Shown: piece by piece, positions 21,001-27,000 of the stretch
How the letters are laid out: each line of letters begins with the position of its first letter
Position numbering within the stretch: position 1 is the first letter of the stretch
Assembly (NCBI GenBank): GCA_965649295.1
Contig: CBFGKH010000004.1
Coordinates: 32,001-96,000 of the forward strand
Direction: 5' to 3'
Origin: a candidate division WOR-3 bacterium
Lineage (GTDB): Bacteria > Hydrothermota > Tepidihabitantia > Tepidihabitantales > Tepidihabitantaceae
Length of the DNA stretch: 64,000 bases
Position numbers: made by a program

Positions 21001-24000
21001 CGACCCCCGCTATCGACTCGAGGCCTATCTCTTTGTCCACGCTGCCCTACCGCGAGCCCAGCAGATTGCCAAGAAGGCCAAACACGTCACCGGCCCTGAA
21101 CTACTTGAAGGCATCCGCCAACTGGCGCTCGAGCAGTTCGGTCTTCTGGCTAAGGCGGTGCTTAATTCTTGGGGTGTTTACACCACTGATGACTTCGGCA
21201 ACATCGTGTTCAACTTGGTGAATGCTGGATTCCTGAGCAAGACTGAAGAAGACCGAATTGAGGACTTCCATGCGGTCTACGACTTTGATGAAGTCTTTGT
21301 CCAAGGCTACTCATTCGGTCCCGATGTTGGCTGATTTTTCGGCAAGCAGGATATTTGGACCAGATGGCAAGCTCGCTGCTACCCTGCCCGACTTCGAATA
21401 CCGTCAGGAGCAAGAGACGATGGCTGCTGCAGTCTGGCAAACGCTCTGCAACGGGAACAAGCTAGCAATCGAAGCTGGCACCGGCGTGGGCAAGAGTCTT
21501 GCCTACCTTGTCCCAGCCGCTATCTGGGCAACTCGCCAGCGCCGAAGGGTTGTCGTATCAACCTACACCCGTCTGCTCCAGTATCAACTTCTCTCCCGCG
21601 ATGTACCGCTGGCGCTATCGGTCGTTGACGACCCGCCACCGGTAAGCATTGCCTATGGCCAAGACAACTACCTGTGTCAGTTTCGACTCAAGACCCAACT
21701 GGGCCGTGGGCTGTTCGACTCCCGTGAGGAAGCGGTCAGGGTCGAGCAGCTAATCAAGTGGGCGACTGCGACGAGGAATGGAATCATCCTCAACTATCCA
21801 GACATCCTCCCGCCGTCAATCCAGCGCCGTGTGACCCGCGACTCAGGTGCCTGCCGTCGCGAGCGTTGTCCCTATCGGCAGAGCTGCTGGTACTGGCAGG
21901 CCCGCGCAGAGTGGGATAGGTCCGGCATCATAATCACCAACCACTCGCTCTACTTCGCCAGCGTCGTCGGGTCAACCGACATATTGCCGGAACACGCAGC
22001 AGTCATCTTCGACGAAGCTCACCGACTCGAAGAGGCCTGTGTCCGTCACTTTGGCACGGACCTGTCGCAGCGCGCAGTTGAACAGTTGCTCGACGATATC
22101 TCCGCTCCGGGTCAGGCCGGACTTTCAAGACTATTACCAACACAATCAGCCCTACGCCGCGACATCGATGCTACGGTCGTCGAAAGCCGTAAGGCGACCC
22201 AGCGTTTCTTTCTCGAAGCCGCCACCCACCTACCTCAAGGCCAAGAACGCACTCGCTTGAGCCAACCGCTTGCCAGTGATGAACCAGGCCAGGCTATCGG
22301 CCGACTGGCAGCACTATTGACCGAAGCTGCCTCCAAGCTTGATGATGAACTGCTGGCTGCCGAGTTCGCCGGTGTTGCCCGTCGGCTGAACGCAACTGCC
22401 GCCGCCTTTGCTGCCTTTGCGTCGTTCGATACTGAGAACTCGGTCTACTGGGCTGACGCGGGCGCGCCAGAAAACCTCGCCTTTGTTTCGGCACCACTCA
22501 ACGTTGCGCCAATGCTCAAGTCTCACGTTTACGACCGAGAAATGCCGACAATCCTGACCTCAGCCACGCTGACTGTTGCTGGAAGCTTCGATTTCTTTCA
22601 ATCCCGACTCGGAGTTACCGAATTCCAACAGATTCGTCTTGACTCCCCCTTCGACTACACCCGGAACAGCCTGCTCTTCATTCCTTCCCGCATACCGCCA
22701 CCCACAAGTGGCACCGCCTTCATCTGCGCCGCTGCTAAGACGATCAAAAGAATCCTGGACTGCTCGGACGGTCGCGCCATGGTTCTATTTACAAGCTACG
22801 ATATGCTCAACGCTGTTCGCACCCTGATGCCAAAAACTAAGTACGCGGTGCTTTGCCAGGGCGAACAGCCAACCAACCGACTGCTCGCCGAGTTCCAACA
22901 GGATATCCATTCAGTGCTCTTTGCGACCCAATCGTTCTGGCAGGGAGTAGATGTGCCGGGAGAATCGCTGTCGTGCCTGATTATCTGCCGGCTGCCGTTC
23001 GAAGTCCCTGACGACCCGCGTCTTACAGCGATTGCCGAGAAACTAAAACAGGAGGGTGTTGATCCATTCACTGTATACCAATTACCGACCGCGGCACTCC
23101 GTTTCCGTCAGGGATTCGGTCGCCTCATTCGCTCAACGACCGACCGCGGTGTTGTCTGTGTGCTTGACCGCAGGATTACCGATCGGCCTTACGGTCGGGT
23201 ATTTCTAAACTCGCTACCACCAGGAATACCTGTCACGTTCAACCTCACTGATGTCCGAGACTTCTTTCGGTACCCCGACCGTTTGACCAAGACCGTCGAC
23301 CATCTGACTGGCCAGGATTGACGTTGACAGTCAATGCCCGGCTGTCGATACTTTCATGTGTCCATTCTCGGCCACCTGCTACTAGGCGTTAGCCTCGTTG
23401 GTGCCTGGTCAATCTTATCAGACGCACCGTTTGACCAGCAGGCTCCAACAATCGCCACGACCGCCACCGGTTTTGTCGTCGCCTGGCAGGACAATCGCAA
23501 CCTGTCCCAGAATCAGCCACAGCAAATCTATGCCTGCCGCCTCGACAATAGCGGGCGGCTCATTGACACTGCCGGGATTCGGCTCTCGTCAGACAGCGAA
23601 GCAGACGACGCCGGACCAAAGGTCTCAGCTAGCGACAGCCACTGCCTTGTCATCTGGCATCGCGGTTGCTGATTCAACCGCGATGTGCTCGGTGCCCGGG
23701 TGGCACCAGACGGAAACCCTGGCCCCACGATAATTATCAATAGCCAGCGTCAGGACCAATTCGTCACCAGCCTGGCATGGAACGGCGCCCAATACCTAGT
23801 CGCTTGGCAAGATCGCCGCTGGAGCCCAATGCGGATTGCTGTCACCCGCTTGACGCCTGACGGTACAGTCCTCGACACGGTCGGCTTGCCGCTGAACGGA
23901 CAGGACACCCTGGCCCTCCAGACCGGCCCAGCAGTGACCAGCAACGGGACTGACTGGCTGGTCACCTGGCTCTCGGACGGGCTTGACGTCTGTGCATTGC

Positions 24001-27000
24001 GGATTGCCGCCAACGGCACCCAGCTCGATAGCACTGTTCTTTCTCTTGCTCCTGGCCAGCCGTTCGAATACGCTGTTGCCGCTGCAGCCGACAACAATAA
24101 CTATCTCGTGGTCTGGGCTGGCGACTCGCCTTCTGGCCGCGGCTCGGACTTACTCGGTATTCGCCTCGCGCCTGATGGCACAGTTCTCGACCCTGAACCA
24201 TTCGTGATTGCCAGCCATCAGGCCGAACTGAGCTCGCCGGCAGTTGCCTACGCTGACGGTCTCTATCTTGTAGTTTGGACTGACTGGCAGGTTGACGGCG
24301 ACATCTGTGCCAGCCGTGTGCTGCCATCAGGAATCGTGCTTGACCCTGACGGCTTTACGGTCTGTGCTGACATAGGTGTCCAGCGCCATCCGGCCGTAGC
24401 TGCCGGACACGGCCGTTTTGTTGTTGTCTGGTCTGGAGTCGGCGCTGATTCTAGCTACGACATCTATGCTGCTGTTCTCGACAGCCTCAATCCGACCGCC
24501 CTGAACAGGGAACCTCAAGAGCCGCGGACATTACTTGCATCACTCGTCAGCCCATTACGTGTCGGCAGGCCGATCACACTCTCTGCCATATTGCCTTGCT
24601 CGATCCAACTCCACCTCTTGGATAGCAATGGTCGTGTTGTCCGCAGCGCAGCCAGCTCGAACAACCTTATCGATACCGAGGGCCTGCCCCCCGGCGTCTA
24701 CTTTCTCATCCTGGCAGGAGGCAAAAAGACTGCCGCCACTCGGGTTCTTCTCATCAAGTAGCTTCTGGCAAGACTTGTCCCATCCGAGTCGAGTCGCTAT
24801 AGTAACTAGTGCATCGTTCCCTTACAGTAGCCGCATTGCTCTTTGGTCTGACGCAGGCTAATATCATCGTCAACCCGGGTTTTGAAGACTGGGCGAACGA
24901 TTCGACTCCGGCTGGTTGGCGCATCGAGTCCCGCTCGCGTACACGAGTGACCTGTGAGCGTGACAGCGTTAGAACCGGTGCCGCTGCCTGCCGTCTGACA
25001 CGAATGGTGAGTGGCACCGGCAACAATAGCGGGCTGTTACAGCAAGTTGCGGTTGCTCCCAATACCCGTTACTATTTCGGATTCTGGTGTCAAGACAACT
25101 CGCCACTCATTGCCGCTGGCATGATGGTGACCTGGCGTCGACAGGACTCAAGCTATCTTCGCTCGACCAGCATCAAATACTCAGCCGATGCACCGGGTTG
25201 GCAACTAGTCCGCGACTCGGCTGTGGCCCCGGAGAGCGCGGCACTAGCTGATGTTATCATCCGCACCTACGGTACTAACGGAGCGCCTGCCGGTACGAGC
25301 TTAGTCTGCGACGATGCCTCATTTGCCAGTACACAGCCCCAGCTTGAAAGTATCCGAGTCTGGTTCGTCCAGGATAGCCTAGCGCAACGACTGATTGCCT
25401 TCTTCGACTCCGCCACCGCTTCCATCGACTACTGCTGCTACAACTCCTCGCGTCCAGACGTCACGCTAGCACTGATTCGTGCCCACAATCGCGGTGTGCG
25501 CGTTCGCGTCATCACCGACAACACTCGACTAACCAATCAGTGGGTGAGCTACCTGCGGGGATCTGGTATCACAGTCTGGTCCGACTCAGGCAGTACTGGC
25601 TCAGGCAACTACATGCACAACAAATTCGCGATTCGCGACCTCGCCGACAACGACACAACTAACGACCGAGTCTGGAACGCAAGCTACAATCCGAATGATG
25701 GTGAGACCAATGCCGACTATGGCATGGAACTGCCCTCATCTGCCCTGGCTCAGGCCTATCGCCTTGAGTTCAATCAGATGTGGGGTGACACCGGCATGAC
25801 GCCGAACCCAAGCCGAGCCCGGTTTCACAGCGCCAAAACCGATCTCCTGCCAACTCATCAATTCACAGTCTGCGGCGCACCTACCTACCTCTACTTCTCT
25901 CCCCAGAACCGTGTGGTGGATACAATCGAGGCATTTGCCCTGCGGGCTGGCCGCGAGATTGGCTTTGCAGTCAATGCCTTCACCTACAACGACCTTGGCA
26001 TTGCCCTCCTTTCGCGCCACAGCAGCGGTTGCCGTGTCTTCGGCACTTTCGACCGAGCCAACGTTGGCGACTCAGCGTCTGAATATCACCGGCTGCGTCA
26101 ATATGGCGTACCAGTCCTAATCGACTCGGTTCCATTTGGTACTGGCACACTGCACGAGAAAATCATGGTGATTGACTCAGAATATGTAGTATGCGGCTCG
26201 GCTAACTGGTCCAACAACGCCAACTACTCCAACGACGAGAATACCCTTATTATCAGGTCGCCAAACCTCGCCCGTCTCTTCATGGCCGAGATTATCCGAC
26301 GCTACCTGGAAGCCGGCGGCACTTACCCGCCAGGAATCCTCGAACAGGAAGTCTGGCCCTGCCCGACACCATGGTCGCAACGACGACAGACTATTCTACG
26401 GCTGGCAGACATTGTCACTCAACCTACCGACCTCTGCTTCTACGATGTGACTGGGCGCCAAATCGACCGGACTCTCGTCAGACCTGGTATCCACTTTGTC
26501 CGAAGACCCAAGACTCAACTGAAAGCACTGATAATCGCCAATTGAAAACCCCTCGTCGTTTGACTTCAGTAACCCCAAAGCTAGACTCAGGGTTAATGTG
26601 GATTCTGGCCATCAATCCAGGCGGCGGGTCCACTAAGGTTGCGGTCTTTCACGGTCCCAAATCGGTCCTTTCTGAAACCATCGAACATCCGCCTGCCCAG
26701 TTGGTGCGGTTCGGCCATATCCTCGATCAGTATAGTCTGCGCAAAGATGCGGTACTTGCCGTTCTTGCCCGTCACCACTTCGACATCAGCCGCATCGAGG
26801 CAATCGCTACCCGCGGTGGCCCGCTACTACCACTGCCGGGCGGCGTTTATCGGGTCACCGAACGACTCGTGGCTGACATTCACCGCGGTGCCTATCAGAC
26901 TTTGCACCCTTCCTTGCTCGGCCCGCTCGTCGCTTGGGAGCTCTCCCAGGAACTAGGCGTGCCTGCCTGGTTCGTTGACCCAGAATCTACTGACGAGTTC

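Follow-up and report, generated by a model that had tools for sequence, protein, structure and literature searches.

We provide evidence that positions 23334 to 24761 of the window, the 64,000-nucleotide stretch of DNA from a candidate division WOR-3 bacterium that was analysed here (C4:32001-96000), are very probably a genuine selenoprotein gene, in which codon 113, a UGA, most likely specifies selenocysteine (Sec). A conserved TGA, a covarying hairpin and a full set of Sec machinery in the same genome support the survey's finding of a selenoprotein with a C-U dyad in a repeat domain; Sec insertion, export of the product and the chemistry of the dyad are inferred. All features of this gene described below lie on the forward strand.

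One reading frame with a conserved TGA

Two ORFs had been called in this region. The first (23334-23672) encodes 112 aa and ends ..VIWHRGC at the TGA, and the second (23685-24761; GTG start, 358 aa) lies in the same frame. Translation of that frame confirms the earlier proposal that the two, g00813 and g00814, form one 475-codon ORF with an in-frame TGA at C4:55670-55672. This TGA, at window positions 23670-23672, is codon 113 and the only one in the frame (..WHRGC-TGA-FNRD.., read as ..HRGC-U-FNRD..), and a TAG at 24759-24761 closes the read-through frame after 475 residues. The called ORFs are replaced by one gene of 475 codons plus the TAG, and full-length homologues are laid out alike. Elsewhere in this genome TGA is an ordinary stop, ending 430 of 1149 long frames, that of the adjoining upstream gene included. 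Public contigs from four runs of three studies span the site with 90-99% likeness and without insertion or deletion; none of the 40 listed differences from the window falls within 23592-23707, and 55 further differences exist beyond those listed.

The survey had reported orthologues that keep the TGA at the same column and had worried that only three were found; the first point is borne out and the second is superseded. Among homologues identified by protein similarity, TGA occupies the same alignment column in 21 of 21 (19 genomes), directly preceded by Cys in 20 and by Ser in one; within the alignment the Sec column does not vary and the Cys column hardly does. The stored loci contain 83 distinct homologous TGA sites in total, most of them gathered with a pattern that fixes the Cys codon and 5 (looser) to 7 (stricter) of the 12 stem positions, the unbiased subset being the 21 protein-similarity homologues only, plus the free stem pairs. 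In a comparison with 61 relatives, exactly one TGA was present in each of the 11 top-scoring matches other than the gene itself, and none in the paralogues. A search of 272 genomes of the phylum found TGA in 20 of the 47 places listed at E<=1e-40. The frames with TGA measure 470-568 aa, apart from one of 795 aa, and those of the 27 listed places lacking TGA mostly 792-1245 aa. The Cys-TGA coding pattern occurs at 79 places in 58 of the 272 genomes, with no matches for a reversed-pattern control, and a genome may hold up to seven paralogues of the propeller selenoprotein family. These counts of sites and genomes overstate independence because the genomes are related.

A Cys aligned to Sec in homologues is a usual though not obligatory trait of selenoproteins, and it was not found here. 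The survey's caveat that paralogues have other residues at the site stands in a sharper form: with Cys-Cys in place of Cys-TGA, the coding pattern gave 0 matches in the 272 genomes, no orthologue lacking the TGA is among the best protein matches, and ~3,600 paralogous loops yielded only three vicinal Cys-Cys loops (P0066, P0023 and P0177).

The hairpin and the selenocysteine machinery

A bSECIS-like hairpin lies downstream of the TGA at 23691-23707, with a 6-bp stem (GGUGCC/GGCACC) around the loop CGGGU, and encodes G-A-R-V-A-P. This hairpin was also part of the survey's finding, and we observe that it is kept and covaries in homologues. It is 17 nt long (-9.4 kcal/mol) and starts 18 nt after the UGA, at a distance of 24 nt from UGA to loop. 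The arrangement goes beyond chance: in the 2.28-Mb genome, this gene is the only place where a 6-bp hairpin with the loop [AC]G[GT]GU stands 18 nt behind a TGA. Across the 83 sites, all six pairs form in 76 and five of six in the other 7. Pairing extends to 98.6% of stem cells versus 83.6% in shuffles, none of 500 of which reaches the observed value, and sliding the stem partner lowers it to 42-65%. Compensatory change is present at three of the six stem pairs. Pairs 39-51 (AU 43, GC 10, CG 9, UA 8, GU 7, UG 1) and 42-48 (GC 60, CG 19, AU 3, UA 1) show four Watson-Crick pair types each, and both join third codon positions. At 63 non-Sec control sites that share the peptide motif, a hairpin with all six pairs never forms.

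The bSECIS model specifies a loop of 3-9 nt, a stem of 4-16 bp, a G in the first two loop positions, a distance of 16-37 nt from the UGA and an MFE of <= -7.5 kcal/mol (PMC13188914). The window hairpin falls within all four constraints, having a 5-nt loop with G at position 2 and then G, 6 bp, a distance of 24 nt and -9.4 kcal/mol. In the family, shape and spacing agree with the model at 83 of 83 sites, and the bare 17-nt hairpin reaches -7.5 kcal/mol (37 C) in only 22 of the 83 members (median -6.9). The organisms are apparently from hot springs. RNAalifold consensus folds of 21 or 83 homologues predict the hairpin helix and nothing else, with no lower stem, and the 101-nt region around the window site is not convincingly better folded than its shuffles (z -1.65). 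The MFE fold of the window sequence contains a second local hairpin, UCGCGGUUG / CAACCGCGA (23660-23683), whose loop holds the UGA. Neither consensus fold, of 21 or of 83 homologues, contains this second hairpin, and it is probably incidental.

The genome encodes tRNA-Sec (72.9 bits; cut-off 47), selA (576 bits), selB (345 bits) and two selD genes with one in-frame TGA each, all of these components being above curated cut-offs. Within the phylum, selA is present in 53 of the 58 pattern-positive genomes versus 69 of the 214 pattern-negative ones, and four of the five pattern-positive genomes without selA have selB and/or tRNA-Sec. Sec machinery was not found in two genomes with a TGA homologue, G186 (96% complete, 300 contigs) and G058 (76% complete). 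The gene resembles known bacterial selenoprotein genes, of which E. coli formate dehydrogenase is the model case, in its in-frame UGA and in a stem-loop within the coding sequence 16-37 nt downstream (PMC13188914); shared with known bSECIS genes are also a loop that starts with G and then G or U, and the presence of selA, selB, selD and tRNA-Sec in the genome. It differs from them in the family, fold and location of its protein, in that no Cys-form orthologues were found, and in a minimal hairpin of 6 bp, which in most relatives is under the model's stability limit at 37 C.

Predicted fold, sorting domain and comparison with known systems

Read by eye, the N-terminus MPGCRYFHVSILGHLLLGVSLVGAWS (23334-23411) is signal-peptide-like, a basic residue being followed by a 17-residue hydrophobic stretch. 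Aligned orthologues start likewise, and by a crude test 64 of 79 upstream frames contain an uninterrupted hydrophobic stretch of 10 residues or more. AlphaFold2 (19-sequence alignment; pLDDT 85.5, pTM 0.77) predicts a seven-bladed beta-propeller over residues ~25-385 (23406-24488), with blades starting near residues 35, 92, 142, 196, 245, 299 and 350. Blade 2 (residues 92-136; 23607-23741) has predicted strands E92-99, E104-110, E117-123 and E129-136, and mean pLDDT is 90-94 in blocks spanning residues 91-130. Strands A and B of this blade are encoded before the TGA and C and D after it; the TGC-TGA at 23667-23672 would place a vicinal Cys112-Sec113 dyad in the B-C strand loop.

At the C-terminus, residues ~405-475 (24546-24758) form a T9SS type A sorting domain, for which TIGR04183 (cut-off 23) gives 28.7 bits with the full-length protein and 31.4 with its final 110 aa. 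The Pfam counterpart PF18962, at 21.5, stays under its cut-off of 27, and the profile matches solved T9SS CTDs (PorU 6za2 at 8e-6; PorZ 5m11). TIGR04183 was the only match when the read-through protein, with Cys for Sec, was scanned against NCBIfam release 20 at E<=1, and no model of a known vicinal Cys-Sec family was hit. The repeat propeller, the sorting domain and the lack of any other NCBIfam family, all of which the survey had described, hold, the first through the AlphaFold2 model and its structural matches. Among the 77 complete members of the family, the sorting domain is above the NCBIfam cut-off in 18, weak in 18 and absent in 41. The genome also has an SprA-like gene at C4:38842-44298 (445.8 bits summed; cut-off 200) and two full-length PorU-like genes (369.5 and 340.4 bits, under the cut-off of 420). 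Neither Pfam nor NCBIfam detects a flavin or NAD domain in the window protein, and no conserved neighbouring gene hints at its function.

The best structural match is the propeller of CylK (PDB 7ron; Z 40.5, rmsd 2.5 Å over 345 residues; next Z 29.8), which is also ranked first by Foldseek (E 2.7e-11). CylK is a cyanobacterial Friedel-Crafts alkylating enzyme with a C-terminal seven-bladed propeller and is no selenoprotein; it shares 13% identity with the window protein, only its chain 249-658, the propeller, aligns, and a profile search gave no sequence-level match to it. A CylK-type alkylating enzyme was rejected, as the N-terminal domain of CylK (before ~249) has no counterpart here and there is no room for one, and a shared function does not follow from the common fold. 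The non-selenium T9SS propeller-repeat paralogues of the phylum, mostly of 800-1250 aa and unnamed or annotated as 'T9SS type A sorting domain-containing protein', share the ~50-residue blade repeat (..P.VAFDG.NYLVVW.D.R....DIYG.RV.PDG.VLD..) and the sorting domain. However, they have D-x-R-type loops where the subfamily has C-U and at least two propellers rather than one, and they lack both the TGA and the hairpin. The propeller profile matches 250,261 representatives at E<=0.001; no Pfam family truly fits the window protein or its paralogues, which give scattered sub-threshold stretches only. A predicted exported selenoprotein, an outer-membrane barrel, is similar in its export beyond the cytoplasmic membrane but, unlike the window protein, has a CxxU motif and Cys-containing homologues and is not T9SS cargo.

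Mammalian thioredoxin reductase has a Gly-Cys-Sec-Gly redox centre, in which the Cys-Sec is penultimate at the C-terminus of a flavoprotein disulfide reductase, and a vicinal Cys-Sec can form a selenenylsulfide. The literal motif G-C-U-G (..FGC-U-GFGD..) is found in one clade of the propeller family, the window protein having G-C-U-F. In contrast to the reductase, the dyad here is internal (residues 112-113 of 475) and lies in a propeller loop rather than a C-terminal tail, flavin and NADPH domains are lacking, and the predicted location is extracellular; a centre of the thioredoxin reductase type was rejected for the internal position and the missing flavin/NAD domain. Known vicinal Cys-Sec (CU) families are the Csac_0668-type 2Fe-2S protein, MerB-like SaoL, HgcA, SaoC, SaoB, MbdU and KCU-star (PMC13188914, Table 1). 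They share with the window protein the Cys immediately before Sec, but according to that table none is a beta-propeller or T9SS cargo. Since most of them are metal- or organometal-binding, as judged by their names, metal or chalcogen binding may be guessed for the dyad.

Other readings of the TGA and a proposed function

One alternative, with a slim chance of being correct, is that the UGA is read through or recoded with a residue other than Sec, such as a near-cognate Trp, Cys or Arg, under stimulation by the hairpin. In its favour, the hairpin is short and in most members under the bSECIS energy limit, and no Cys-form orthologues were found that would show the need for a Cys-like residue. 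However, the element agrees with the bSECIS model in shape, loop sequence and spacing, pattern matches are confined to lineages with selA, with none in families lacking it, the Cys neighbour is, bar one Ser, invariant, as in known Cys-Sec selenoproteins (PMC13188914), and TGA is otherwise a normal stop in this genome.

We consider it very unlikely that the TGA is a true stop, separating a 112-aa secreted fragment from a separately initiated 358-aa protein. Gene callers do split the gene, both here and in public databases, where the C-terminal fragments P0027 and P0028 are separate proteins; 12 nt downstream of the TGA there is a GTG that might serve as a restart, and nearly all homologues contain a GTG, coding for the Val of G-x-R-V. 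Nevertheless, the counterpart of the window GTG is ATA or ATT, a non-start, in many homologues, and conservation across the 83 sites takes in the reading frame, the column of the TGA and the flanks on either side. Only the read-through product makes sense: it joins the signal-peptide-like start of the first piece to the sorting domain of the second, which would otherwise bear that domain without a signal peptide, and it keeps whole blade 2, which the TGA splits, in a closed propeller predicted with confidence. A true stop would also leave the covarying hairpin and the tie to the Sec machinery unexplained. Conservation effectively refutes the idea that a former Cys or Trp codon became TGA in a pseudogene or through a mistake in assembly or sequencing: a few members look damaged (downstream frames of 44, 62, 254 and 265 codons in L155, L080, L047 and L070, and one family copy with an additional TAG), but the same codon stands at 83 sites in at least 58 genomes, independent contigs of three studies retain it, both flanks are conserved at the protein level, and 77 of 81 complete downstream frames span 319-392 codons.

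Under the selenoprotein reading, SelA, SelB, SelD and tRNA-Sec of the same genome would decode the UGA at codon 113 as Sec, directed by the 17-nt stem-loop that lies 18 nt downstream within the coding sequence. A signal peptide would direct export of the product, which would fold as a seven-bladed beta-propeller, and its C-terminal sorting domain would hand it to the type IX secretion system for placement on or outside the cell surface. The Cys-Sec dyad is the only feature that sets this subfamily apart from its non-selenium propeller paralogues, which number in the hundreds of thousands, and the dyad, in the B-C loop of blade 2, may be the working centre. It could act as a selenolate/thiolate pair able to close to a selenenylsulfide, or as a pair clamping a soft metal, metalloid or sulfur species in an extracellular, anoxic hot-spring setting; any particular chemistry is tentative at best.

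In summary, the window protein most likely belongs to a selenoprotein family of which it is the first to be seen and which is frequent in a single uncultured bacterial phylum. At least a fifth of the sampled genomes of this WOR-3-like phylum carry the family, and no family of this kind is among the 119 of prokaryotic selenoproteins that a 2026 review lists, or in NCBIfam. It is possible, though we hold it doubtful, that these proteins are a Sec-obligate, surface-displayed family of T9SS-exported single seven-bladed propellers with a vicinal Cys-Sec centre for extracellular selenium chemistry. On this boldest reading, they might capture or reduce sulfur/polysulfide or thiophilic metal(loid)s (As, Sb, Hg) at the surface of hot-spring anaerobes. 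If true, this would be a new niche for selenocysteine, beyond its usual cytoplasmic thiol-oxidoreductase roles.

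One reading frame and the capacity to decode it

The survey's finding that two called ORFs are parts of one gene holds. The first ORF (23334-23672, plus strand, 112 codons) ends in ..VIWHRGC-TGA; its frame is open past this codon as far as the TAG at 24759-24761, and the second ORF (23685-24761, plus strand, 358 aa from a GTG start) is the continuation of that same frame. Reading the TGA as U yields 475 residues, of which one, U113, is recoded (..HRGC-U-FNRD..). The contig coordinates reported for the TGA are arithmetically correct. We consider that the feature is real and that 23334-24761 is very probably a genuine selenoprotein gene. 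Contigs from public runs labelled as hot-spring metagenomes (three studies, one of which may be the source) are 90-99% alike and retain the site; none of the public runs listed as containing the window's DNA is an RNA run.

The window's genome (an assembly of 2.28 Mb in 19 contigs) is able to decode UGA as Sec. It has a tRNA-Sec (72.9 bits; gathering score 47), selB (345 bits), selA (576 bits) and two selD genes on the minus strand of contig C1 (G000:C1:355394-358244 and G000:C1:318451-319377), each with an in-frame TGA of the Sec-type SelD; one of the two adjoins selB, and its TGA context is ..SCAG-TGA-ASKLG... TGA is not reassigned in this genome: among stop-to-stop frames of at least 300 codons, 430 of 1149 end in TGA, including that of the helicase gene ending at 23321.

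Conservation of the TGA and of the hairpin behind it

With the read-through protein as query against 60 relatives, each of the best 11 matches (E 2e-100 to 7e-53, 30-45% identity) has exactly one TGA. The twelfth TGA-bearing match, in genome G059, has 27% identity, and the remaining matches listed are TGA-free blades of far longer repeat proteins. In the 272 phylum genomes, 20 of the 47 places listed at E<=1e-40 contain a TGA, one copy having also a TAG. Frame length in these 20 is 470-568 aa, except for one of 795 aa, and in the 27 listed TGA-free places it is 792-1245 aa, except for three of 493-580 aa, one of which is an ordinary paralogue on inspection and two of which reach contig ends. 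The claim that orthologues keep the TGA is thereby upheld and extended, from an identical column in all 21 homologues found by similarity and extracted (19 genomes) to 83 distinct sites overall. The residue before the TGA is Cys in 20 of the 21 and Ser in the other, and the motifs are of the types W[HQ][RE]GC-U-F.RD, [FY]GC-U-G[FL]GD and RDHC-U-SDAD.

The wider set was gathered with a DNA pattern derived from the alignment (Cys codon, TGA, conserved Asp, G-x-R-V-x-P codons). In its strict form the pattern occurs at 38 places in a collection of species-representative genomes, all of them in-frame TGAs of the family (10 loci already found and 28 new). A looser form, run on the 272 phylum genomes, matched 58 of them at 79 places; a reversed-pattern control had no match there. 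Sixty new places were fetched and two left out, which brought the stored loci to the 83 distinct sites. The downstream frame is 319-392 codons long in 77 of the 81 sites that end inside the fetched DNA; the four short frames (44, 62, 254 and 265 codons) may be decayed copies or assembly problems. Depositors label the homologues as candidate division WOR-3 or 'Candidatus Stahlbacteria'.

Some genomes have several copies. Genome G168 has seven paralogous Cys-TGA propeller genes (loci L100-L106; also L061, L070, L078, L085 and L093-L095), of which two share a contig at a distance of about 5 kb, and the family is expanded there. In one family of the phylum, tandem pairs lie beside a urocanase gene (loci L046 and L047/L060; G088:C2 and G087:C52), and one copy of each pair has lost the last base pair of the hairpin (..ACCCA) and has Gln in place of Pro.

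The pattern goes together with the Sec machinery. The selA gene, present in 122 of the 272 phylum genomes, occurs in 53 of the 58 with the Cys-TGA pattern versus 69 of the 214 without it, a tie to be read as an association and not as a statistic because the genomes are related. No match to the pattern was found in families without selA (e.g., f8, f15, f16 and f21-f30). Five pattern-positive genomes have no selA match: G022 and G223 have both selB and tRNA-Sec, G191 has selB, G203 has tRNA-Sec, and in G186 (96% estimated completeness, 300 contigs), with two Cys-TGA propeller genes (loci L120 and L121), no selA, selB or tRNA-Sec was found. Either the Sec machinery of G186 is unassembled or its two genes are relics. 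Genome G058 (76% complete) has a TGA homologue by protein search and no Sec machinery above cut-offs.

The hairpin reported downstream of the TGA was also recovered, at 23691-23707 on the plus strand. It starts 18 nt past the TGA and consists of GGTGCC (23691-23696), the loop CGGGT (23697-23701) and GGCACC (23702-23707). RNAalifold predicts this helix alone, with no lower stem, from alignments of 21 and of 83 sequences. In the set of 21, which is the unbiased one, 97.6% of cells are paired versus 83.7% in shuffles (0 of 500 reach this value), with compensatory change in three of the six pairs. The set of 83 has 98.6% of cells paired, versus 83.6% in shuffles (again 0 of 500) and 42-65% with slid partners, and the covariation score is 0.412 versus 0.122. 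Two pairs were left free by the search pattern, and both link third codon positions: pair 39-51 is AU in 43 of the 83 sites, GC in 10, CG in 9, UA in 8, GU in 7 and UG in 1, with 5 unpaired, and pair 42-48 is GC in 60, CG in 19, AU in 3 and UA in 1. At pair 41-49, C-G alternates with U-A in step with Ala/Val and Ala/Thr replacements. Three loop sequences occur: CGUGU in 41 sites, CGGGU in 40 and AGGGU in 2.

The hairpin codes for G-[AV]-R-V-[AT]-P, a motif of every blade, and its other occurrences were therefore examined as a control. At 63 sites elsewhere in the fetched loci with the same peptide motif, all six pairs were never formed and five pairs formed six times, against six pairs in 18 of 21 Sec sites. 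Of the eight occurrences of the strict motif in the window's genome, only the one behind the TGA is fully paired.

The bSECIS consensus, as given in a 2026 review of 119 prokaryotic selenoprotein families (PMC13188914), calls for a 4-16 bp stem capped by a 3-9 nt loop, a UGA-to-loop distance of 16-37 nt and a folding energy of -7.5 kcal/mol or lower; the first two nucleotides of the loop include a G, and the base after it is usually G or U. The window's element agrees with this consensus on every count (5-nt loop, 6 bp, 24 nt, -9.4 kcal/mol). Most relatives have a bare hairpin of -6.9 kcal/mol at 37 C, and -7.5 is reached in only 22 of 83. Folding of 101 nt around the site gave a z of -1.65, unconvincing alone, and the Rfam scan of the window at gathering thresholds had no match at the TGA. 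A second hairpin in the window's sequence (23660-23683, plus strand, 9 bp, with the UGA in a 6-nt loop) was rejected, being absent from the homologues' consensus.

Predicted fold, proposed export and possible function

The N-terminus, MPGCRYFHVSILGHLLLGVSLVGAWS, is signal-peptide-like by appearance, and orthologues begin alike. AlphaFold2, run on a 19-sequence alignment, predicts an all-beta structure (pLDDT 85.5, pTM 0.77) of seven four-stranded blades at residues 25-385, followed by a small beta domain. The TGA falls inside blade 2, in the loop joining strands 104-110 and 117-123, and this block has a pLDDT of 90-93. The CylK propeller (7ron) heads the matches in an exhaustive structural search (Z 40.5, rmsd 2.5 A over 345 residues, 13% identity) and in Foldseek; other seven-bladed propellers come next at Z 24-30, among them lectins, YncE, integrin alpha and WD40 proteins. 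A PDB search with the family profile gave no sequence-level link to solved propellers; its only matches were to sorting domains, including those of solved PorU and PorZ, and to FlgD-like domains. We read the likeness to CylK as shared fold only. PQQ dehydrogenases are propellers with a vicinal disulfide; a likeness to them was dropped, as they are absent from the 50 fold matches listed.

At the C-terminus there is a match to the type A sorting domain of the T9SS (TIGR04183 at 28.7 bits, cut-off 23; PF18962 gives 21.5, under its cut-off of 27). The survey's statement that no NCBIfam family besides this domain applies is correct for release 20, which has no model for the selenoprotein family. 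Of 77 complete members, 18 have the domain above cut-off and 18 a weak match, and in 41 it was not detected. The window also holds an SprA-like T9SS translocon gene (6842-12298, plus strand; G000:C4:38842-44298; TIGR04189, 445.8 bits summed), with an open frame of 1864 aa whose last matched stretch is flagged with one internal TAG, and the genome encodes two PorU-like proteins. T9SS export is a well-founded prediction for the window's protein and a less secure one for the family, because the domain is often weak or undetected.

The gene lies between a DinG-like helicase gene and a gene for a PLD-like protein (24809-26545, plus strand, 578 aa, two PLDc_2 stretches). The latter has a hydrophobic N-terminus and a C-terminal tail that by eye resembles another sorting domain, and on these grounds it is probably another secreted cargo. 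In the flanks of 19 orthologous loci (42 frames) no neighbour is common across clades; what recurs is an M1 peptidase (three loci), urocanase (one family) and DUF3795 (another family), and no functional partner can be inferred from the neighbourhood of these loci. The only Rfam matches in the window at gathering thresholds are a tmRNA (53974-54325, minus strand, 161.4 bits, tag peptide ANNSYALAA) and a tRNA-Val(CAC) (36883-36956, minus strand).

In the mechanism that we propose, SelB-GTP-Sec-tRNA would bind the hairpin when the ribosome arrives at the UGA, and Sec would be inserted; the protein would leave unfolded via the Sec translocon, fold and then be passed to the T9SS. The functional centre would be the Cys-Sec pair, carried by a loop at the propeller face. 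The classic CU centre, that of thioredoxin reductase, is redox-active. Pfam and NCBIfam scans found no electron-donor domain in the read-through protein. Because there is neither such a domain nor a conserved neighbour, we slightly favour a protein that binds or captures a soft metal(loid) or sulfur species on the cell surface over a turnover redox enzyme. By their names, the families with a CU motif in the 2026 review are mostly metal- or organometal-binding (SaoL, SaoB, SaoC, HgcA, MbdU and a 2Fe-2S protein; PMC13188914), an analogy that would fit such a role.

Relation to paralogues and place among selenoproteins

The blade repeat belongs to a very large superfamily: 250,261 cluster representatives match the 19-sequence profile at E<=0.001, and no real Pfam family covers the repeat. 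That paralogues have other residues at the site, as the survey had noted, is confirmed; the B-C loop of ordinary blades reads W-x-D-x-R...D-I-Y-G, and C-U takes its place in blade 2 of the subfamily. Once residues generic to the repeat are set aside, the columns with complete or almost complete conservation are G111, C112 and U113. A Cys-Cys version of the DNA pattern had 0 matches in the 272 phylum genomes, and protein similarity searches (residues 30-200, a 57-column site profile and the 19-sequence profile) found no Cys-form orthologue. These similarity searches were swamped by long multi-propeller paralogues, the top 150 of the 250,261 all being long repeat proteins. Vicinal Cys-Cys in the equivalent loop is rare, occurring in 3 of 297 paralogous proteins among about 3,600 loops. 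In one of these three proteins, P0066 (..VVWHEYCCADHDLYGARV..), BLAST places CC against CU; this is a metagenomic multi-blade protein of 659 aa with a T9SS tail. It is a possible Cys-type counterpart and the sole hint of a Cys form, though it is a paralogue.

Table 1 of the 2026 review, in the part of that source consulted, includes no propeller, repeat or T9SS family among its 119 entries; the present family is absent from this inventory, and its fold and cellular location are unrepresented there (PMC13188914). The main texts of BSepDB and deep-Sep do not mention propellers, secretion, T9SS, WOR-3 or signal peptides, and a literature search on selenoproteins or selenocysteine with T9SS, WOR-3 or secreted beta-propellers found nothing pertinent. 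The family could be present under a generic name in the supplementary tables of selenoproteome papers. Database copies are unnamed fragments or 'hypothetical protein'. We file it as a putative new selenoprotein family with ordinary bacterial decoding, unusual in its fold, its location and the lack of any Cys-form orthologue found. Such a lack is unusual for a selenoprotein family, and because of it search methods that depend on Cys/Sec pairs would miss the family.

Recognition of the Sec codon has practical consequences. In dozens of genomes the gene stands as two pieces, a truncated "secreted" stub and a "cargo without signal peptide", and both are repaired at once. The tiny, strongly covarying hairpin inside the G-x-R-V-x-P coding motif shows cleanly, in a natural case, how an RNA structure and a peptide motif coevolve, and together they yield a compact pattern that locates family members directly in DNA. 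Finally, the family offers one of few clues to function among the propeller-repeat cargo proteins, huge and uncharacterised families that predominate in the secretomes of these uncultured organisms.
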